Shown in pieces: positions 712 to 11,091 of a DNA stretch of 11,395 bases. Within the stretch, counting starts at the first letter, position 1. Each line of letters starts with the position of its first letter. The notes beneath the pieces are model-generated. The model ran no database searches. It was not told the DNA's origin and was given only the letters and a program-made list of their open reading frames with translations. Location: the UHGV virus genome UHGV-0117955; one strand, 5' to 3'. Position numbers and translations under genes: made by a program. The stretch comes from a virus.

Positions 712-2178
712 ATGGCTACTTGGCAAGGAACAAATGGCGGATTGTTGGCTGGTATCGGTGGGGTCAACTCAAACGCTCCGAGCGTAAATGAGATCGGCAA
801 TACGCTTCAGCTTATCAGGCAGAACAATGATATTGAGCGCTCAGGCGCTAACAATGTTGGACTGACGGCCTTGCAAGGTCTTTCAGGTATTGCTGGTGTT
901 TTTCAGCAGGAAAAGCAGGCTCAGCGGCAGAAAGAATTTCAGCAGGCATACGCTAATGCTTATGCGTCTGGTGATCGCGGTGCTTTGCGTCAGTTGGCTA
1001 CTCAATATCCAGACCAGATTGAATCCGTTCGTAAAGGCATGGGATTCATTGATGAAGACCAGCGCAATTCTATCGGCACCTTAGCGGCTGGCGCACGCCT
1101 TGCGGCCTCGTCTCCAGAAGCAATGCAATCATGGCTGCAAAACAACGCCAAGGAACTGACTCGCGTCGGTGTTGACCCTAACAGCGTTGCTCAGATGTAT
1201 CAGCAGAACCCTTCAGGATTTGGTGAGTTTGTTGATCACCTTGGGATGGCTGCTCTTGGTCCGATTGATTACTTCAATGTTCAGGACAAGATGGCTGGTC
1301 GTGAAATTGACCGAGGCAGGCTGGCAGAGACAATCCGCAGCAATCAGGCCGGCGAAGCACTTCAGGCGAGAGGGCAGGATATTAGCCGAGCAAATGCGTT
1401 AACGTCAGCATATGCACCAACAGCCGCAATGCAGAATTACAATCAGTACGCGCAAATGTTAAAGGCAGATCCAGATGGTGCAGCGGCATTTGCGGCAGCG
1501 GCGGGAATTAATCCCAATGCTAAGAAATTACTTAAGGTTGAAACCAATCCTGATGGCTCGGTAACTAAGTATTACACCGATGGCAGCGAGGAAGCCGGAA
1601 AACTAAACCAACCTATATCTGGTGATGGCATTAAACCAATTAGCTTGCCACAAGCGCAAAGCATCATAGATAAGGCTAATGAGGGTTCCAAGAAGGCGGC
1701 GGGATTTGCTTTGCGATTAAAAGATTCAATGGACTCAATGAATCAGCTTAGTAAAAGCATTGACCCTAAGCGAGTTGCATTAATAAATCGCTCTCTTGGT
1801 GATGGGACTATTGCAAATTTAAGCCTATCACCAGCGGAGCAGCAATATATGGTAAATGCGAGAGACGCCTTGTATGCAATTTTGCGCCCAGAAACAGGTG
1901 CAGCAATTACTCTGCCAGAGATGCAGGAGTATTCCAAAATGTACCTGCCTCAGCCCGGTGATTCCAAGGCTGCTACTGAAACAAAAATGCGAAAAATGCA
2001 GGGCCAATATAACTCATTACGTGGTCAGTCTGGTCGCGTTTATGATGCTTTGGTGGTTTCAAGTGCTGCAAATAGTCAACAACAGAGCAATAGCCAACAA
2101 CCGACAAATACCCAACAGAAGCAGAGTCAATCCGGATCATATACCTCAAAATCAGGCATTCAATTTACGGTGGAATGA
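712..2178 (+). CDS. P22-type ejection protein, gp20-like
   Basis: ATG at 712 preceded by AAGGGG (701-706). 488 aa, Ala/Gln-rich, with a Q/S-rich low-complexity C-terminus. Its stop overlaps the next start as ATGA (2175-2178), indicating translational coupling. Order and size fit the P22 7-20-16 ejection-protein trio. Confidence 0.6.
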
Positions 2179-4007
2179 TGAAAGTAACTGCAAACGGTAA
2201 GACATTTACCTTCCCTGATGGTACGAGCACGGAAGATATTGGCACCGCCATTGATGAGTATTTTGCTGGTCAGGCTGTTCAGCAACAAACAGTTAATCAG
2301 GCCAATAATGCACCAACACAGGAAGAACCATCATTGATGCAACAAGCTGGCGATTGGCTCACTGGTGGTCAAAGTGCAGGGCAAATTGCAGAACAGGCTG
2401 GTCGTGGTCTGGTAAACATACCATTTGACGTATTGCAGGGTGGCGCAAGTCTGATTAATGCAATCAGTCAGGGGCTTGGTGGGCCAAAAGTATTGGATGA
2501 TGTCTATCGTCCAGTCGATCGACCGACAGACCCTTATGCGCAAGCTGGAGAAACAATTGGCGGGTATTTAGTTCCAGGAGTTGGAACGGCAGGAAGCATG
2601 GCTATTGGATCACTGGCAGAGGCCGCAAATCAGAAAGGCGATTTCGCACAAAATGCAGCTAAAAATGCCGGAGTTAACCTTGCCGCTCAGGGTGTTCTTT
2701 CCGCAGCAGCAAAGGGAATAGGGCGTGGAATTACTGCTGTTCGTGGCGAAATATCACCAGCAGATCAGCAATTGCTCAAGCGTGCCGCTGCGGCAGATGT
2801 ACCAGTTATGACATCGGATGTAGTTCCTCCAAAAACAAAACTTGGCAATCAACTGCAGGGTTACTCAGAAGGAGTCATAGCTGGTACTGGACCAATGAGA
2901 GCCGCACAGCAGGATGCCAGAACCAAGCTTGTTAATCGCTTCACCGAAAAATACGGCGACTACGATCCATCTGTAGTCGTTGATAGTCTAAAGTCAGGCG
3001 TTGCAAGGGAAAAATCGTTAGCCAAGTCAAAACTAAACAACCTGTCAGGAAGAATGGTTGGAAAGCCAGTTGATACAAGTGGCGCCATAAGAGCCATCGA
3101 CGGAGCAGTAAACGAACTTGGGAAACTTAAAGGTGTTTCTGACACCCAGACCATTTCTGCGCTTAATGATTATAAGAATGCCATTCAGGAGATAACAAAT
3201 GGAGATGATGCCTTTGAGTTACTTGATAAGCTGAGAACTCAGTTCCGCATTGACGTAAAAGGCGATCGCACAGTTCTGCCATCAATGTCGCAAACAATGA
3301 TCAACAGGGTCTACAACTCGCTAACCAATAGCCTTAGTAAATCTATAGCGAAAGGACTTAGCCCAAAAGATGCTTCAGCATGGAGAGCGGGAAAAGCTGA
3401 TTATGCAAAAATGGCAACACATGCAACTCAAACGCGCCTTAAAAACGTTCTAAACAAAGGAGATTTAACTCCCGAGGCTGTAAATACCATTGTGTATGGA
3501 CAATATGGGTCAGATATAGCTCGATTGTACGGGAAACTCGATCAAAAAGGTAAAGACATGCTAAGGGCGGCATATATCAGCAAAATAGCTGACAAGGTAG
3601 GTGACAGCCCTCAGAAAATGATGACCGAGCTTGGCAAGCTGCAAAAACAAGCAAATGGTCAGGTGTTTAAAACTGTATTTGGTGGGAAGAACGGAAAAGA
3701 GATAGAGGGGATGTTATCTATTCTCGATGCTACCAAAAGAGCATCTGAGGCTAATGTTGTGACGAAGACTGGCATGACACTCGCGCCTTTGGTAAGGGTT
3801 ATTGGTAACCTAAAAACCGGAGGCGCGCTATTGGCTGGGGAAACAGGGATTGGCCTTATGTCGAGGGTTTATGAAAGCCCTATGGCTAGGAATGCGCTCT
3901 TACGTCTGGCAAACACTAAAGCTGGAACGCCAGCTTATGAAAGAGCGCTGAATAACGCCGCAAATGCCATCAGACCAATACTTGCCAATGATGCAACTGA
4001 TCGCTAA
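2175..4007 (+). CDS. P22-type ejection protein, gp16-like
   Basis: ATGATG start at 2175 overlapping the upstream stop. 610 aa, against about 609 aa for P22 gp16. Last gene of the ejection-protein trio, directly before the immunity region as in P22. Stop TAA at 4005-4007. Confidence 0.65.
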
Positions 4008-4028
4008 GGGTTGATGTCATGGATGTTG

Positions 4029-4667
4029 TTAATTGCGAATGGAATCGCGGAACTCTTTACTTGATAGAAAAGGATCTGTTCTCCTTAACTCATCATAGTT
4101 TTTATTAAACTTTCTTGCTTCACCTGGGTATCTGTTGAACAAAACATTGCAGAAAAAAGAGAGCAATAACTCACATATGAATGCTAATACCCTGAAAAAT
4201 AAAGGTATAAAAAGAAGGGAAGGTTCATTGAAGTCTCTATTCCAAACAAAATAGACAATCATCCCGACATACCAAATTGATATCCCTATACTGATGATTG
4301 TTCCAACAGAGGTAACTACGACCCCGATTAAGTCGGACAGTCTGTTTGCCAGTAACTCATTTGAGTATCTTGCAATCATATACCGCCAACATTTTGCAAT
4401 ATCATCCTGATCTGTAGAGTCTTCTGGAATAGCTAGGCTTCTACATATTGAAGTAGCTCTTTTTTTCTCAACTCTTTTTGAGAGCCATCCATTAAAGAGA
4501 TACATCAACACCTGCGTTGCTATTCCTGCACCAAGTGATATCAAAGACATCCCAAAAAATCGCCATCCTGGAGATAGCGACTGGTACTGCCAAACAAAAA
4601 AAATTAAAAAACCCAATGAGCCTATGACATAGGCTGATGTATCGCTATATATATCTATTTTTTTCAT
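4029..4667 (-). CDS. Integral membrane protein (four predicted TM helices) in the sieA position; candidate superinfection-exclusion protein
   Basis: The track ORF 4029..4700 begins with GTG and has no Shine-Dalgarno sequence. The in-frame ATG at 4667 is preceded by AAGGAG (4677-4681 on the - strand) and is the preferred start, giving 212 aa. Four long hydrophobic segments (YVIGSLGFLIFFVWQY; FFGMSLISLGAGIATQVLMYLF; LIGVVVTSVGTIISIGISIWYVGMIVYFVW; LLFIPLFFRVLAFICELLLSFFCNVLF) separated by charged loops. Markedly AT-rich compared with the flanking structural genes. It lies directly downstream of, and on the same strand as, the Mnt-like gene, where P22 carries sieA. The functional call is positional only. 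Confidence 0.45.
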   Translation of the reverse strand: MKKIDIYSDTSAYVIGSLGFLIFFVWQYQSLSPGWRFFGMSLISLGAGIATQVLMYLFNGWLSKRVEKKRATSICRSLAIPEDSTDQDDIAKCWRYMIARYSNELLANRLSDLIGVVVTSVGTIISIGISIWYVGMIVYFVWNRDFNEPSLLFIPLFFRVLAFICELLLSFFCNVLFNRYPGEARKFNKNYDELRRTDPFLSSKEFRDSIRN

Positions 4668-4717
4668 TGAGTAGCCACTCCTTAGTTTTGAGCAGAACAC
4701 CGGATGATAATGTTTTG

Positions 4718-4969
4718 TTATGTGTCTTTTGGGATTCTATCCAGTAACTCGTTGGAAATTTTATCAAGTAAAGATTTTATTTGTTTAAGATCTAATGATT
4801 TGTCTACTGATGAGACGTCAGATGATAACGCATCCTCAAGAATTTGAACTATCTCTGAGTTCATAGATCGACCGTTTCGTTTAGCCCTTTCCGCAATAGC
4901 ACTACGCATGCCGTCAGGCATTCTAACCGTAAATCTTTCTATGAAATTTGATTCGTCTTTTTCTGACAT
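4718..4969 (-). CDS. Mnt-like ribbon-helix-helix repressor (copy 1)
   Basis: The translation contains FTVRMPDGMRSAIAERAKRNGRSMNSEIVQILEDALS, closely matching the N-terminal ribbon-helix-helix region of P22 Mnt/Arc (FNFRMP…ANGRSMNSELLQIVQDALS, recalled). The track ORF starts at 5017 with a hydrophobic leader that would overlap the promoter; the preferred start is the internal ATG at 4969, giving 83 aa (P22 Mnt is 83 aa). Stop TAA at 4718-4720. Confidence 0.7.
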   Translation of the reverse strand: MSEKDESNFIERFTVRMPDGMRSAIAERAKRNGRSMNSEIVQILEDALSSDVSSVDKSLDLKQIKSLLDKISNELLDRIPKDT

Positions 4970-5018
4970 TTTCTTATTCGCAAGGCATATGAGCAATAAA
5001 AAACACAGTAGCATCATA

Positions 5019-5079
5019 TTGACATTATGAGCAATGGCATCATAATGGTGTCATGACATCATGGTGATGTCATTATGAC
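5019..5079. promoter_or_regulatory. Divergent overlapping promoters with palindromic operator-like sites (Pant/Pmnt-like)
   Basis: Rightward promoter: -35 TTGACA (5019-5024), 16-bp spacer, -10 CATAAT (5041-5046). Candidate leftward promoter on the - strand: -35 TGACAC (5053-5048), 17-bp spacer, -10 CATAAT (5030-5025). Perfect 10-bp palindrome TGTCATGACA (5049-5058) at the predicted rightward transcript start. Perfect 11-bp palindrome GTCATtATGAC (5069-5079). Repeated TGACAT/ATGTCA half-sites at 5020, 5054 and 5067. The architecture mirrors the overlapping Pant/Pmnt and operators of P22 immI. Confidence 0.55.
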
Positions 5080-5089
5080 GGAGATATTG

Positions 5090-5266
5090 ATGATGAGCGA
5101 TGTTCTTTACAGTGGTCGTAAAAGTCAGAGTTTCCAGCTTCGTTTGCCAGCGCGAATGAAGGAGGAGATCAGACGCGTAGCTGAAATGGATGGAATTTCT
5201 ATCAACTCTGCGATTGTGCAGCGACTGGCTAAAAGCCTGAGAGAGGAAAGAGCTAATGCCCAGTAA
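5090..5266 (+). CDS. Arc-like ribbon-helix-helix repressor
   Basis: 58 aa from ATG 5090, with GGAG (5080-5083) 6 nt upstream; the track ORF start at 5075 has no Shine-Dalgarno sequence. The motif SFQLRLPARMKEEIRRVAEMDGISINSAIVQRLAKSL matches the Arc/Mnt fold (P22 Arc is 53 aa, with FNLRWP…NGRSVNSEIYQRV). It sits directly downstream of the TTGACA/CATAAT promoter. Confidence 0.7.
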   Translation: MMSDVLYSGRKSQSFQLRLPARMKEEIRRVAEMDGISINSAIVQRLAKSLREERANAQ

Positions 5267-5339
5267 AAATAGTGAAGCCCGGAAGTGCGCGAACACAAAC
5301 CGGGCCTCTATGTCAGTAACCGTACCCAAGGAAACTAAC

Positions 5340-5978
5340 ATGAATATTGTAGCAAAATCAGATTATAACTTCCAAGGATTCACTTTTAACCCTGTAACAG
5401 AGGGCGGGTCTATCTGGTTCACCTCCGCCGAACTAGCTAAGGCTCTCGGCTATAAAAAAACTGATGCCATCAGCCAAATTTATGCCCGTAATGCTGACGA
5501 ATTTTCCGACTCAATGTCATTGACCCTCAATATGAAGGTCAACGGAATAAACAATAGCTTACGTAACAAATCGGTCAGAGTTTACTCGCTCCGAGGCGCT
5601 CACTTGGTGGCGATGTTTGCTTCTACGCCCAAGGCCAAAGAGTTCCGCCGCTGGGTGCTGGATATTTTGGATCGGCAGGCAGAATGCTCACCGATTGCAA
5701 AACAGTTTACTGACGAAGAACTGGTTAATCTCTGCTACTTACAATTGTGGATGGAGAAGAGTCAACAAATGTGCAAACACATCTACCCAGGAATGAAGCA
5801 AATTGGTTCTGAGCTTTCAGGAAGGATTTACGATATTGCATATGAGACTCGCTACATGTCAGAAGAAACCAAGAAATCACTTCTTCGTGAAATGAAGAAT
5901 CTTGATACCAACAATTTTGTCGTAAAGAACGCTCAGCCAATGCTGGCAAAACTGCGCGGCGAGGAATGGATTCATTGA
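5340..5978 (+). CDS. Bro-N domain antirepressor-like protein
   Basis: ATG at 5340 preceded by AAGGAA (5327-5332). The N-terminus (FQGFTFNPVTEGGSIWFTSAELAKALGY) looks like a Bro-N/antirepressor N-terminal domain. An alternative upstream ATG at 5256 overlaps the arc stop and is considered less likely. Stop TGA at 5976-5978. Confidence 0.6.
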   Translation: MNIVAKSDYNFQGFTFNPVTEGGSIWFTSAELAKALGYKKTDAISQIYARNADEFSDSMSLTLNMKVNGINNSLRNKSVRVYSLRGAHLVAMFASTPKAKEFRRWVLDILDRQAECSPIAKQFTDEELVNLCYLQLWMEKSQQMCKHIYPGMKQIGSELSGRIYDIAYETRYMSEETKKSLLREMKNLDTNNFVVKNAQPMLAKLRGEEWIH

Positions 5979-5982
5979 TTGG

Positions 5983-6028
5983 TGCGCCGGACGGCGCAAA
6001 AAGAAAACCGCCAGTGTGCTGCTGGCGG
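5983..6028. other. Two GC-rich intercistronic stem-loops
   Basis: Hairpin 1: TGCGCC-ggac-GGCGCA (5983-5998). Hairpin 2: CCGCCAG-tgtgctg-CTGGCGG (6008-6028), a 7-bp stem with a 7-nt loop. An A-rich run (5998-6007) lies between them, so on the - strand hairpin 2 is followed by TTTTCTTTT and resembles an intrinsic terminator facing leftward. Confidence 0.5.
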
Positions 6029-6066
6029 CCTATGTCACACCCTTACTACCACATAAGGAATGCCTA

Positions 6067-6795
6067 ATGACTTTTAAGAATGTAGCAAACATCGGATCCG
6101 TTGTCACGGATAAAACCATTGATAGCCAGTACCTGTTAGAGATGGTCAATCATGCTCGTAGACATTGCGGGGAAAAAGAAGTCCGCAATAACGACTTTAT
6201 TGCACGCATTAAGGATGAACTTGAAGGTGAGCACTACGAAATTTTCGTAGTTCAAAAATCAAACAAGACAACTTCTGAAAAAGTTGTTATGTCAATTAAG
6301 CAAGCCCTTCGAGTGGCTGCTCGTGAATCTAAAGCTGTTCGCCGCTCACTTGTAGACCAACTTGAAAGTATGCAAGAAGCGCACATTAAAAGCGGTAAAT
6401 CGTCGAGTGGACTTGTTGAGTATCGCCAGGCGCGAACATTGAAAATGACGGTTGAAGCTGTTACCAATCTGTTCGATTTGATGCCAAATCTTGCGCCGGA
6501 AGCAAAGCAGACTGCGGCAGCAAGCATAATCAACCCGATCGTTGGTTTTAATGCAATACCTCTTCCAGCAATAGAAGAGCATTACTACTCAGCAGGGGAG
6601 GTTGCAGAGCAGCTTGGAGTAACGGCCAACAAGATTGGTCGCATTGCTAACGCAAACAACCTCAAAACTGAGCAGTACGGTAAGTTCTTCCTGGATAAAT
6701 CTGCGCATTCCAGCAAACAGGTGGAAGCATTCCGCTACAATGCGGAAGGTGTTAAAGCACTACAACACCTGATTCATGGGAGTAATGTTGCATAA
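6067..6795 (+). CDS. Antirepressor-like protein (possible AntA-like N-terminus and KilA-C/ANT-like C-terminus)
   Basis: ATG at 6067 preceded by AAGGAA (6055-6060); the track ORF begins at a GTG at 6016. 242 aa. The C-terminal segment YYSAGEVAEQLGVTANKIGRIANANNL resembles the helix-turn-helix-like core of phage KilA-C/ANT domains, and the N-terminal part (…NDFIARIKDEL…) loosely resembles AntA-type domains. Domain calls are from memory and need an HMM search. The gene sits where ant sits in P22 immI. Confidence 0.4.
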   Translation: MTFKNVANIGSVVTDKTIDSQYLLEMVNHARRHCGEKEVRNNDFIARIKDELEGEHYEIFVVQKSNKTTSEKVVMSIKQALRVAARESKAVRRSLVDQLESMQEAHIKSGKSSSGLVEYRQARTLKMTVEAVTNLFDLMPNLAPEAKQTAAASIINPIVGFNAIPLPAIEEHYYSAGEVAEQLGVTANKIGRIANANNLKTEQYGKFFLDKSAHSSKQVEAFRYNAEGVKALQHLIHGSNVA

Positions 6796-7023: not shown

Positions 7024-7047
7024 AACCCGCTTAATCGCGGGTTTTTT
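7024..7047. terminator. Intrinsic terminator between convergent genes
   Basis: AACCCGC-ttaatc-GCGGGTT stem-loop (7024-7043) followed by TTTTTT on the + strand. It lies between the stop of the 73-aa ORF (7016) and the convergent mnt-like gene, whose last codons and stop (7031-7033) are encoded within the stem. Confidence 0.7.
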
Positions 7048-7288
7048 CTTTTCTAAGGATATCAGCCACAACTTCTTTTACTCGTTCCGAGATTAATGAG
7101 GCCAGCCTCTCTTCTTCATCGCGATGCCCGCTTACAGGTGATGGTTTGGAGAGTGATTCTTCCATCGTAGCCACAATTTCGGAATTGATAGACCTGTTAT
7201 TCATTTTTGCACGTTGCTTAATCTTAGCGTGCAACTCGTGCGTAAGCCTCAAGTGGAACTGCGCCTCATCGTATTTGCTGTACATCAT
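7031..7288 (-). CDS. mnt: Mnt-like ribbon-helix-helix repressor (copy 2; the closer match to P22 Mnt)
   Basis: The translation MMYSKYDEAQFHLRLTHELHAKIKQRAKMNNRSINSEIVATMEESLSKPSPVSGHRDEEERLASL… aligns along its length with P22 Mnt as recalled (…FNFRMP…ANGRSMNSELLQIVQDALSKPSPVTGYRNDAERLA…). 85 aa from ATG 7288, with GAGG 5 nt upstream on the - strand. The track ORF (7031..7684) extends 132 codons further upstream across the tailspike start and is treated as a spurious extension. Confidence 0.8.
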   Translation of the reverse strand: MMYSKYDEAQFHLRLTHELHAKIKQRAKMNNRSINSEIVATMEESLSKPSPVSGHRDEEERLASLISERVKEVVADILRKEKTRD

Positions 7289-7420
7289 CAATGCCTCACC
7301 AAATGGGTGGAATGGCATCGTAAAACCTACTGTACAAATCAACAATCGTACCATTTCGGTATGCAATAAACGCCAACCGTAGCCATGCTGCGGCGATTCC
7401 TTGTATCTGGAGCAAATTAA

Positions 7421-10153
7421 ATGACAGACATTACAGCTAATGTTGTAGTGAGTATGCCTTCGCAACTCTTCACTATGGCTCGTTCTTTTAAAGCCGTAGC
7501 TAATGGCAAAATTTATATCGGTAAAATTGACACTGACCCTGTAAATCCTGAAAACCAGATTCAGGTTTATGTGGAGAACGAAGACGGTTCTCACGTTCCT
7601 GTTGCACAGCCAATCGTCATTAATGCTGCTGGATATCCGGTATATAACGGGCAGATTGCCAAATTCGTAACTGTGCAAGGCCATTCTATGGCTGTATATG
7701 ATGCGTATGGCACGCAGCAGTTCTATTTCCCTAATGTGCTGAAGTATGACCCGGATCAGTTACGGCAGCAATTAGAAGATCCTGATGGTGCTAAAAAATA
7801 CCCTGAATTACAGATTGCACGATGGCGGGATGATAAAGACGTTCGCGGGTGGGGGGCGGATGACTCTGGGAATAGAGATTCAACACAGGCTTTTCTTGAC
7901 GCCGCATCTAGCGCAGGAAAGAGTGGTTTGGTTCATGTGCCTTCTGGTGAGTTTATAGTTGATGCATCGAAAATAGATATTTCACGCTTCTCCGGTGATG
8001 GTGTTCTAATCAGTAATGGTGTTCGCATTTCTGTTAATCCGCCGATGCAAAGTTTCTCCATTGGACAAAGAAAACTTGCGACCCTGAATTTTGGTGATGA
8101 TATCAATGCGCCAACTATATATGCGAATGCACAAAATGCATTGCAGGGAATAGCTTGTGTAAGGCATGAAGGTATTGAGAAGGTTTTTATCACTCAACAG
8201 GTTGGAGGTTCTAACTGGGGAAAGGACACCCTCACAAGGATCAGTGAGTGGCACTATACAAGCGATGGTTCAACTCTTTATGTTGTGACATTTACAGAGC
8301 CATTGCCTCTTGGTCACGGTTCAGATCTTTCTGCCACAATAGAGAACGGTGAACTATATCTGTTTACAACAACAATTGCTGAGACTGGTTCCTCTCTAGG
8401 AGGGAAGGGGTATTCAAAGACAAAATGGAAAGGGGCATCAACATCTGCTGAAGATATAACTCATTACCGAGTATTTGGTGAGCCGGGTGATAATAATCTG
8501 ATTAACCTTGCGCAGCGGGCAAGTATTTGTGTATCTAATGATGGGCGATATGTCATATTAATTGCGACATCAAACGCTGGGACTGGCCGCTTTTTATACG
8601 TATATGATCGCAAAGAAGTGGAATCTTCTTCTAACCCAATGAAAGTTAGACCGATTAATGGTCCTGTTCCACTTGTCCGTGGTAAAGGTCAGTATGGTGC
8701 AACACTTCAGGGTATTACATCAGATAGCAGATATATTTACACAATTTGGGGTGGCGTTCCTGCAAGATGCGTAAGGACAGTACAGATTTATGATATGGGT
8801 GGTACGCTAATACGTTCATTTCCTGTATCACTTGCCGCATCACTTTATACAGAGACTCAGTTAAATGGTTCTGACTCTAAAATCGGAGTTCCGGTTAGCT
8901 TTGAGCCTGAAGGGCTGGCAATAAGAGGTGATGAACTTGTCTGTGGTGCTATGGATGTATGGAAAAGCGCAGGGGATGTTGTAAGCCATCGTGGTAAAAA
9001 TTGGGTAAGTATTGTTACTGGTGATAACAAGGGAAATCTTCCGACAAACAGGTCTTATTGGTTAAAAACATCGCTTGCAGCGACAAGTGGTGAATGGGAT
9101 TCAGGCGCAACATATAAATCAGGTGATTATACTCGCAGAAATAAGCATCTGTTTGGAATAGCAAACCTGTCTGATATTCTTGGCAACCATCCAGTGCATG
9201 GTGCAGAATCCGATCCGTATACCGGAACCGCGCATCAATATTATGCTGGAACTGATATCGCCTTTAACCGTGAGCACGGTTCATTTACTATTGCGATATT
9301 TGACGAAGCCATTGGAGAGTATACCAAATCCCTCGAGTTGAATTATGGAAATAACCTTAACCTGTTTGATACAGATTACGGACATGACAATAATTCATGG
9401 GTAAGTACGAAAGCAGTATTCGACTCAAACTTTCGAGGTATGCAGTTCCGTTCTAAAGATGGGAATACTGCGGGTGGTGCTTATATTGATATCCATGCTG
9501 CTGATTGTCCATCTGCGGCTGGTGAGTTGATACTTGCCTCTACAGATGGAGGTGTCGTCAGACTTAAGCAGGGGAATGTAACAGTATTTTCTGCGACTAA
9601 AGATACTACATCGACATGGGCGACGACGACATTAAGGCCAACAACTGATAACCAGGTATCACTTGGAAGGTCCGTTAACCGCTTTTCTCAGGTCTACGCA
9701 GGGACTGCAACTATAAATACATCTGATGCAACAGAGAAAACGGAAGTCAGAACTCTTTCCGATAAAGAGCAGGCGGTTGGGTTAGCTCTTGTTGATGAAA
9801 TTGGTTTTTATCAATGGCTTGATAGTGTAAAAAATAAGGGAGCTGATGCCAGACTTCATGCCGGACTTACGGTGCAACGGGCAATGGAAATATTCAGAGA
9901 GAATGGACTTGATCCATTTAAATACGGAGCGATCTGCTATGACAGATGGGATGCATATGCAGATACAGATCCTGCTATTTATGATGATAAAGGTAACCTT
10001 GTTCGTGAGGCTATAACTATTACGCATGAAGCAGGAGAACGCTATGCATTCAGAAATGATGAATTACAGTATCTAATGATTGCTGCATTAGGTATACGTC
10101 AGAAAAATATTATAAAGAGGATTGAAGAACTGGAAAATAAGCTTGCAAATTAA
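7421..10153 (+). CDS. Tailspike protein: P22-type N-terminal head-binding domain fused to a divergent receptor-binding/depolymerase body
   Basis: GGAG at 7409-7412, ATG at 7421. The first ~115 aa ([11 protein letters not shown]…[39 protein letters not shown]…[13 protein letters not shown]…NVLKYDPDQ) are near-identical in pattern to the N-terminus of P22 gp9 as recalled. The rest (about 795 aa, against 667 aa total in P22) is unlike the P22 endorhamnosidase body. The last ~142 aa resemble a C-terminal intramolecular chaperone module: a TSD motif at Ser768 (nt 9722-9724), then [20 protein letters not shown] and a terminal coiled-coil-like [14 protein letters not shown]. Confidence 0.85.
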
Positions 10154-10308: not shown

Positions 10309-11019
10309 TTATTGTTTTTCTTTTGTTAGGTTCCAATATTCACTTGTGGTTTTTATGGAGTCCTTATTAGGCTTTACATAAGGTTTATGTATGGAGAGAT
10401 GAGGTCTTTCCCAGGCAATGTCTTTTTTTATTACTCTTGCTGGAACTCCTGCTGCAATAGAGTTATTTGGGACGTGTCCTTTAACAACAGCTGCATAGCC
10501 AATAACACTACCACTTTCGATTTCTGCACCACCAAGTATTGCCGCTCGGCGGCCAACCCAGACATGACTTCCAATATAAATAGATTTTGGCATATTTATA
10601 CGTTCACCTGTTACTACACTAAAAATAGGGTGGGAGTCATCAGTTTTAACTTCATTTCCACTTGAAAACATGCAGTCATCGCCAATAATTATGCTTGAGT
10701 TTTCTACAGCAGAAATCATACCTTTACCAGTGCAAGTGAAATCAGAGCCTATTTTTATGGAGGAATTCTCACCCACTCTTATATGGGCTTGTATACCTTT
10801 GTTTGCGATATGGCATGGGCCAATTTCAAAATACCCATTGTTGCAGTCAAAATATATCTCAAAATATTTTAATGATGCATCTTTATGAATGATAAGTTTA
10901 TTATTAGATCCTCTAAACTGAATTAGTTTGACGTCACAACTACCTTCGTACTGGATCTCATTACCCATTTCATCAGAATACTTCTCTGCTTTTGTTAAAA
11001 CAACTTTTCTAATTTTCAT
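10309..11019 (-). CDS. Hexapeptide-repeat (left-handed beta-helix) acyl/acetyltransferase; candidate lysogenic-conversion enzyme
   Basis: The C-terminal half carries typical hexapeptide-repeat motifs (IGDDCMFSSGNEV…IYIGSHVWVGRRAAILGGAEIESGSVIGYAAVVKGHVPNNSIAAGVPARVI). Strongly AT-rich relative to the structural genes. The track ORF begins at a TTG (11043); the first ATG is at 11019 (MKIRKVVL…), and neither has a strong Shine-Dalgarno sequence, so the start is uncertain. Stop TAA at 10309-10311. Confidence 0.75.
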   Translation of the reverse strand: MKIRKVVLTKAEKYSDEMGNEIQYEGSCDVKLIQFRGSNNKLIIHKDASLKYFEIYFDCNNGYFEIGPCHIANKGIQAHIRVGENSSIKIGSDFTCTGKGMISAVENSSIIIGDDCMFSSGNEVKTDDSHPIFSVVTGERINMPKSIYIGSHVWVGRRAAILGGAEIESGSVIGYAAVVKGHVPNNSIAAGVPARVIKKDIAWERPHLSIHKPYVKPNKDSIKTTSEYWNLTKEKQ

Positions 11020-11091
11020 ATTATCAATAAGTAAAAAATGCAAATGAAAATTTCAAATTTACATTATCTGGCGAGGTAATGCAACACGGAT

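Follow-up and report, generated by a model that had tools for sequence, protein, structure and literature searches.

The window (the whole stretch of DNA analysed, 11,395 nucleotides of UHGV virus genome UHGV-0117955) is, by sequence, the right end of the late operon together with the immI region of a P22-like (Lederbergvirus-type) E. coli prophage. Its 3900-5100 segment was 99.9% identical to E. coli EN-1077 by megablast, and the complete segment was present in 13 complete genomes. The ORF map and family scan placed a gp7 homologue at 7-702 on the plus strand, followed on the same strand by two ejection-protein genes. The first, a gene 20 homologue of 488 aa (712-2178), shares 49% identity with P22 gp20 over the N-terminal half and is named ‘phage DNA ejection protein’ in an identical prophage. 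The second, a gene 16 homologue of 610 aa (2175-4007), matched PHROG 770 DNA transfer protein (E=7e-246) and is 55% identical to P22 gp16; a residue check found the equivalent of P22 gp16 G532 to be retained. These are the ejection-protein classes in which SieA-escape mutations arise in P22.

Convergent with the gene 16 homologue, on the minus strand at 4029-4667, lies a 212-aa gene identified as sieA (type B) through PHROG 7745, BLASTP to P22 SieA and its identity to the SieA of prophage HS1. An 83-aa Mnt-like RHH gene (4718-4969, minus strand; Pfam Arc, E=1.4e-17) stands upstream of it. Beyond this are an Arc-like gene (5075-5266) and two antirepressor genes (5256-5978 and 6016-6795) on the plus strand, a second RHH gene of Mnt length on the minus strand (~7031-7288), the tailspike gene, a gene 9 homologue (7421-10153, plus strand), and a hexapeptide acetyltransferase gene (10309-11043, minus strand). 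The position of sieA, between gene 16 and the tailspike and convergent with gene 16, matches that of sieA in P22, as a reading of the letters alone (the sequence-only reading) had proposed, and the locus between these two genes is common to P22, HS1, EN-1077, H22, Z1322 and 30 of 36 IMG/VR loci.

The sieA frame is intact and begins at an ATG at 4667. Although the ORF list gives a longest form of 223 aa that starts at a GTG at 4700, the ATG is the RefSeq start in identical prophages and agrees with the conserved MKKIDI N-terminus of homologues. The GC content of sieA (36.6%) is below that of the genes for gp16 (46.4%), gp20 (47.8%) and gp7 (51.3%) and of the entire window (43.5%), confirming the compositional contrast with the flanking structural genes that had first drawn attention to the gene (36.6% versus 46-51% in the ejection genes); the AT-rich island extends over the adjacent RHH gene (GC 36.1%). 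A Shine-Dalgarno sequence, AAGGAG (4678-4683, minus strand), lies 10 nt ahead of the sieA ATG. It had been singled out as the only strong ribosome-binding site of its kind, and it is indeed the sole copy ahead of a gene start, but the hexamer itself is statistically unremarkable, occurring six times in the window against a chance expectation of 5.0 ± 2.3.

Relationship to the SieA proteins of HS1 and P22

The protein matched PHROG 7745, ‘superinfection exclusion SieA-like’, at E=2.1e-20 with 145 of 164 profile positions covered. When a phage collection was searched using tblastn, the only matches were the sieA genes of P22 and of closely related Salmonella phages (27% identity; E=3e-11 for P22), and pairwise BLASTP against P22 SieA gave 28% identity over 148 residues (E=2e-24), with the alignment beginning at residue 44. 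The family motif FxRYPxEAxxFNK is intact just after the last TM helix (FNRYPGEARKFNK, residues 177-189), where the P22 counterpart reads FGRYPGEANGFNK. At 27-28% identity, the window protein is thus on alignment evidence a true though distant homolog of P22 SieA.

Three types of SieA have been described, approximately 25% identical to each other (Leavitt et al., mBio 2024, PMC10883804). Type B has one more TM helix, at the N-terminus, and its tested representative is sieA from the HS1 prophage of E. coli HS (PMC10883804). The window protein is identical to this HS1 protein (EcHS_A0321 = ECHS_RS01600, WP_000717773.1) at 209 of 212 residues, with the same length and start and the same position within a P22-like prophage, and the three differences (F38L, L62I and V116I) are conservative substitutions at sites where type B homologs vary. 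Because of this near identity, the gene is an allele of a published and experimentally characterized gene. Hydropathy and an AlphaFold2 model also point to the type B architecture, predicting three core TM helices and an N-terminal extension with a fourth. In contrast, P22 SieA belongs to type A and has 164 aa: the homology covers the cytoplasmic loop, the FxRYPxEAxxFNK motif and the three C-terminal TM helices, while type B adds an N-terminal extension of ~45 residues, which contains the fourth TM helix, and its C-terminal tail is longer. The tblastn search found the type B gene in no record of the phage collection, in agreement with the statement that the sequenced sieA-bearing phages are all type A (PMC10883804).

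The window protein had no match in local Pfam, NCBIfam or PADLOC models (DUF3918, at E=0.052, was subthreshold), and in PADLOC neither the membrane protein nor the RHH protein matched any profile at E<=0.01. A homologue table lists Pfam accession PF26849.1 as precomputed for all type B proteins. We conclude that the window gene is almost certainly a type B sieA allele and, judging from its sequence, very likely a functional one carried by a P22-like E. coli prophage. The earlier proposal of a superinfection-exclusion factor at the P22 sieA position is therefore upheld by the PHROG 7745 match, the homology to P22 SieA and the 99% identity to the tested HS1 protein, whereas its remark that the sequence was not recognized no longer applies, since this is a near-exact copy of the published HS1 type B SieA and hence already known.

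The exclusion phenotype has been described for both types. A single copy of HS1 sieA with 106 bp of upstream DNA, placed in Salmonella, fully excluded P22, L, MG40, MG178 and LP7 (PMC10883804). It also excluded P22 hybrids carrying the ejection proteins of L, Sf6 or CUS-3, and an HK620 hybrid plated at ~10% (PMC10883804). The exclusion spectrum published for P22 SieA is that of type B. Single-copy P22 sieA was sufficient to lower P22 plating at least 10^7-fold and lysogenization 10^5-fold and to abolish the K+ efflux seen when DNA enters, with no growth cost and with other phage types unaffected (PMC10883804). Under P22 SieA, adsorption and release of the ejection proteins proceed while K+ efflux and DNA entry stop, and the FLAG-tagged protein fractionates with the inner membrane (PMC10883804).

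The leader, the neighbouring repressor-type gene and the mosaic module

As the sequence-only reading had it, a repressor-type gene lies co-oriented upstream of sieA: the Arc/Mnt-type RHH gene at 4718-4969 (minus strand) ends 50 bp before the sieA ATG. Its product consists of an RHH domain and a C-terminal extension and aligns end to end with P22 Mnt at 35% identity; the protein of the second RHH gene (~7031-7288) is closer to P22 Mnt, with 44% identity and an SKPSPV motif, so that either of the two may act as Mnt. Two promoter-like sites overlap face to face at 5013-5046. One (TTGACA-16-CATAAT, 5019-5046, plus strand; 11 of 12 consensus matches) points to the arc/ant genes, and the other (ATGCCA-16-TATGAT, 5040-5013, minus strand; 9 of 12) points to the Mnt-like gene and sieA. 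As far as consensus matches go, the arrangement mirrors Pant/Pmnt of P22.

Between the two genes is a conserved sieA leader of 46 bp (4668-4713, minus strand), identical in the window, HS1 and EN-1077 as far as 4713, beyond which the sequences are unrelated. The stretch CAAAACTAAGGAG around AAGGAG also precedes P22 sieA and occurs in all four aligned type B contexts, so that P22 shares with the window the locus, the orientation and the conserved leader and ribosome-binding site. The leader contains a -10-like TATCAT (4709-4704) that, by analogy, sits where the putative P22 PsieA has its -10; upstream of it no convincing -35 was found in the window. A consensus scan of the window for a sieA promoter yielded weak candidates only, among them a 9 of 12 match inside the RHH gene (4787-4758). 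Scanning and RNA folding detected neither a terminator-like site nor a stable hairpin between the RHH gene and sieA, and the folded leader RNA showed no significant structure (z=-1.3). Here the window differs from P22, where orf59a, a terminator and a putative promoter of its own separate sieA from mnt.

Because no terminator or stable structure intervenes, and given the face-to-face promoter-like sites, read-through from the RHH promoter into sieA is plausible. Co-transcription with the Mnt-like gene is thus a plausible, although not obligatory, arrangement on this sequence. In the lysogen, sieA would probably be expressed at a low level, its transcript most likely coming from read-through from the promoter of the Mnt-like gene, from a weak promoter in the leader, or from both.

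Comparison across prophages shows that the RHH gene is a frequent but not an obligate partner of sieA. In HS1 the upstream neighbour is a 213-aa HTH-domain gene, in contrast to the Mnt-like RHH gene of the window; in H22 it is a LexA-family gene, and in Z1322HEC0003 there is only a divergent P63C gene. In a set of 17 near-identical IMG/VR loci, the co-oriented upstream gene is this RHH gene in six and the HS1 HTH gene in six, and the other loci have no such neighbour or a divergent one. Most contexts place a repressor-type gene, of one fold or another, immediately before sieA, which fits expression of sieA in the prophage state.

The sieA allele belongs to a mosaic module shared with HS1 (3885-4713; 99.0% identity by blastn against E. 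coli HS), comprising the last ~41 codons of gene 16, a 21-bp spacer, sieA and the 46-bp leader. HS1 DNA is accordingly 99% identical to the window from the last 41 codons of gene 16 to 46 bp upstream of the ATG, whereas outside the module the HS1 gp16 body is of a different type, with only ~55% identity to that of the window. The idea that sieA is tied to one gp16 type was rejected, as the same allele pairs both with window-type gp16 (~99%) and with P22-type gp16 (~75% to P22); the only part of gene 16 that travels with sieA is its conserved last ~41 codons. A weak terminator-like hairpin for the minus strand (3936-3919) lies inside the module. Of 5,426 complete E. coli genomes searched, 21 carry full-length sieA at >=98% nucleotide identity, two of the copies being on 39.9-kb ‘plasmid’ records, and RefSeq labels it ‘hypothetical protein’ in all 21 genomes.

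Predicted topology and the wider superfamily

The Kyte-Doolittle profile of SieA has peaks at residues 8-26 (weaker, 1.35), 40-58, 113-131 and 151-169, and an AlphaFold2 model built with 11 homologues contains helices at 6-26, 33-77, 104-143 and 149-177 (pLDDT 75, pTM 0.56). The predicted cytoplasmic segments (N-terminus, loop 61-112 and tail 177-212) hold 21 K and R residues and the two short predicted periplasmic loops hold two. Because of this 21 versus 2 split, an N-in/C-in topology with four TM helices fits the window SieA, at the level of prediction; a distant family member with a C-terminal DnaJ J-domain agrees with a cytoplasmic C-terminus. The hydropathy peaks, the modelled helices and the charge distribution together support the original description of a small polytopic membrane protein with a charged loop and tail. 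The predicted TM helices would place the window SieA in the inner membrane, and in the topology model its periplasmic exposure amounts to two loops of ~6-8 residues, with almost no periplasmic mass. A Foldseek search of the AlphaFold2 model against PDB and BFVD returned nothing better than E=0.5 or a TM score of 0.3, an uninformative outcome.

To place the protein among its relatives, a profile of 11 type B proteins was compared with 1.84 billion cluster representatives (clusters at 50% identity). This search returned 176 clusters at E<=1e-3, 31 of them at E<=1e-10, with proteins mostly of 160-180 aa; named members come from Serratia, Yersinia, Salmonella, Vibrio and Aeromonas. Scanning a genome collection with a narrower alignment gave eight loci, and the genome scan revealed a distant branch with three TM helices in Polaromonas, Variovorax, Rubrivivax, Pseudomonas and other Gammaproteobacteria, next to genes that are not evidently of phage origin. 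Most IMG/VR members keep the place convergent with gene 16, and four loci lie directly behind a CI-type repressor. Fused domains occur in a few superfamily members, namely a C-terminal J-domain, Sel1 repeats or an N-terminal trypsin-like domain. These results suggest a SieA-like superfamily that extends far beyond the three published types.

In a superfamily alignment of 37 sequences, R179, P181 and A184 are invariant. The full set of invariant or nearly invariant positions comprises N108, R109, D112, G115, R179, P181, A184 and a Trp aligned with window residue 153, where the window SieA has Phe. In the model, all of these except the Trp map to the cytoplasmic ends of TM3 and TM4, with the Trp near the periplasmic end of TM4, suggesting that the conserved site of the superfamily faces the cytoplasm.

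The block to DNA entry and how it may be imposed

For P22 to escape SieA, changes are needed in gp16 (G532W, P546S) and in gp20 (residues 338-350) (PMC10883804). In the ejection conduit, gp16 appears as density spanning the cytoplasmic membrane, against whose outer face the C-terminal domain of gp20 (residues 256-435) rests as a plinth (bioRxiv 10.64898/2026.09.03.749273); the gp20 escape positions fall inside this domain. As published for the HS1 and P22 proteins, the window SieA would be made from the prophage and placed in the inner membrane, where it would stop incoming P22-like phages from delivering DNA across that membrane and leave other phage types unaffected. At the conduit step, the C-terminal ‘club foot’ of gp20 docks on the membrane and gp16 forms the channel through it, and SieA would keep the gp20-gp16 junction at the cytoplasmic membrane from being completed or from opening. 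Because almost nothing of the protein is exposed to the periplasm in the topology model, SieA would act within the bilayer, in the membrane plane, with gp16 or the gp16/gp20 junction as its target, and would not extend into the periplasm. From the published genetics together with the predicted topology, direct interference with the gp16/gp20 conduit is the reading that we favour, with some reserve. Counting against it, the best-conserved residues (N108, R109, D112, R179, P181 and A184) are all predicted to be on the cytoplasmic face, away from the first membrane contact of the periplasmic conduit.

HK97 gp15, Tuc2009 Sie2009, TP-J34 Ltp and T4 Imm are analogous membrane proteins, encoded by prophages or phages, that keep the genomes of related phages from crossing the cytoplasmic membrane, and escape from blockers of this type maps to conduit or tape-measure proteins. 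Unlike SieA, they target long-tailed or T-even phages and not P22-like podophages. No sequence kinship between the window SieA and these proteins was found, PHROG 7745 being the sole PHROG match and PADLOC giving none.

Alternatively, type B SieA could work indirectly, by masking or altering a component of the host inner membrane on which the conduit depends; YajC, a requirement for P22 DNA entry, would be one example. Leavitt et al. raised host-factor occlusion as an alternative and noted that contacts between SieA and ejection proteins are hard to reconcile with the great diversity of both (PMC10883804). Types A and B are 24-28% identical yet indistinguishable in specificity against very divergent ejection proteins, and a conserved host partner explains this equal specificity more easily. 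The cytoplasmic-face location predicted for the invariant residues of the superfamily and the occurrence of some members in genomes without an evident P22-like context point the same way. However, the escape mutations sit in phage gp16 and gp20 and not in the host, a high multiplicity of infection titrates the block, and P22 SieA is active in both Salmonella and E. coli. On balance we regard an indirect, host-directed action as rather unlikely. Similarly tentative is the broader proposal of a SieA membrane superfamily that extends beyond P22-like prophages to Vibrio, Aeromonas, Pseudomonas and Betaproteobacteria, with some members directly behind CI-type repressors of other temperate phages, and in which exclusion would depend on a conserved activity or host partner at the cytoplasmic side and not on phage-specific recognition of gp16 or gp20.

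The sequence-only reading had also offered abortive infection, and a membrane toxin forming a toxin-antitoxin-like pair with the RHH gene and killing the infected cell might be imagined from a small polytopic membrane protein in AT-rich cargo adjoining a gene of a common antitoxin fold, whose product gives weak FitA/HicB/CopG-type Pfam matches. This was rejected: the block described in the literature falls at DNA entry, with K+ efflux absent and lysogenization down 10^5-fold, and the same sieA allele is found without the RHH gene. In addition, PADLOC gave no match, the 99%-identical HS1 protein alone was not toxic enough to block strain construction, P22 SieA carries no growth cost, and the RHH gene has the Mnt-like length and divergent-promoter layout of immI, leaving a toxin-antitoxin or abortive-infection role highly improbable. 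It is equally improbable that the gene is an inactive relic or a housekeeping membrane protein placed here by chance, as the uniform ‘hypothetical protein’ label in RefSeq and the lack of matches in local Pfam, NCBIfam and PADLOC models might suggest, for the frame is intact, the family-invariant residues and motif are all present, the gene is >=98% conserved across 21 E. coli genomes, each time within a P22-like prophage, and its presence in just 0.4% of complete E. coli genomes argues that it is not a housekeeping gene.

As a single locus, the window finding matters little, the gene being almost identical to an exclusion gene that has already been published and tested. Because RefSeq/PGAP, NCBIfam, PADLOC and local Pfam leave SieA unnamed, automated censuses of defence systems will miss exclusion of the SieA type. 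Where P22-like coliphages (HK620, CUS-3 and Sf6 relatives) are used in typing or therapy, resistance at DNA entry is to be expected in lysogens of the window prophage. If the tentative superfamily proposal is true, a cytoplasmic-side activity or host partner would explain the equal specificity of SieA types that are only 25% identical. For the question of how SieA stops completion of the gp16/gp20 conduit, the conserved residues predicted on the cytoplasmic face offer concrete mutagenesis targets.

Breadth and settings of the SieA-like superfamily

The SieA-like superfamily (window 4029-4667; proteins P0013-P0162) reaches far beyond the three types described so far (A, B and C; Leavitt et al. 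2024), with 176 clusters at 50% identity recovered in the profile search. Alignments A5 and A6 identified six near-invariant residues (N108, R109, D112, R179, P181 and A184, numbered as in the window protein), and all six are predicted to lie on the cytoplasmic face. Across the superfamily the SieA motif takes the wider form [TF][GN]R[YFW]PG[EQ]A[KR]xxRK. The precomputed Pfam accession PF26849.1 was attached to every type B homologue (P0001-P0012); as this model was not part of the Pfam copy used for our scans, a SieA family may already be present in a newer release.

Some superfamily members are fused to other domains: a DnaJ J-domain at the C-terminus of P0040, Sel1 repeats at the C-terminus of P0072, and a trypsin-like peptidase at the N-terminus of P0079. 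Fusion to a J-domain, as in P0040, supports a cytoplasmic C-terminus.

On four IMG/VR viral contigs a CI-type repressor gene (phrog_4) is followed immediately, on the same strand, by a SieA-like gene. The loci are L032 6210-7567, L033 6156-7501, L040 5972-7300 and L041 40-1173, and on L040 the SieA-like gene adjoins lambdoid replication genes. These loci represent an immC "repressor plus exclusion gene" arrangement, not the site between gene 16 and the tailspike. Distant SieA-like proteins with three transmembrane segments are encoded in genomes of Polaromonas, Variovorax, Rubrivivax, Pseudomonas, Woeseiaceae and Ectothiorhodospiraceae (L042-L049). No phage Pfam matches were found among the neighbours of these distant genes, one of which has GST and GrpB genes next to it.

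The sieA leader and early coding region

Type A SieA of P22 and the type B protein are only ~27% identical, yet ~25 nt of the sieA 5′ leader, including CAAAACTAAGGAG, is common to both (window 4668-4700, minus strand; P22 locus L001 3430-3461). The conservation could reflect a signal for translation or transcription, or mark a recombination joint.

Within the first 25 sieA codons, in the Phe-rich part encoding TM1, a 7-bp hairpin with a terminator-like score (4619-4635, minus strand) is followed by a long T-rich run extending to ~4590. This element could act as an attenuator of expression, a reading in keeping with the weak transcription reported for sieA, or it may be a mere by-product of TTT codons.

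Closely related E. coli records

The genome nearest to the window is that of E. coli EN-1077, with DNA 99.9% identical over window positions 3950-5100. Despite this identity, its sieA-adjacent ribbon-helix-helix (RHH) gene (L002 7918-8070) is labelled by PGAP as a partial pseudogene. The EN-1077 tailspike is truncated beside an IS5 transposase (L002 10313-11848), and this prophage is therefore probably defective, with sieA retained. The gp16-sieA-RHH region is also found, at 99.4% identity, in NZ_CP146561.1 and NZ_CP146567.1, E. coli records from hospital wastewater that were submitted as plasmids. Their length of 39.9 kb matches that of P22-like phage genomes, and each probably represents phage DNA in circular or excised form, not a plasmid.

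Regulatory and acetyltransferase genes of the window

The window locus carries three Arc/Mnt-family genes. P22 Mnt is 35% identical to the product of the sieA-adjacent RHH gene, versus 44% to that of a second Mnt-length RHH gene adjoining the tailspike (7031-7288, minus strand), with which it shares an SKPSPV segment. Any of the three may fill the Mnt role. A 217-aa ORF at 7031-7684 was rejected as an over-extension running into the tailspike start. Downstream of the Arc-like gene lie two tandem, mutually unrelated antirepressor genes on the plus strand, one of Bro-N/P22AR_C type (5256-5978) and one matching phrog_1726 (6016-6795), whereas P22 has a single ant gene.

Downstream of the tailspike, an AT-rich gene (10309-11043, minus strand; 35.5% GC) encodes a hexapeptide-repeat acetyltransferase. 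This protein shares 38.5% identity with NeuO, the enzyme of phage CUS-3 that O-acetylates the K1 capsule, and it is also related to WbbJ/maltose O-acetyltransferases. The gene probably provides a second lysogenic-conversion function, the modification of a surface polysaccharide.
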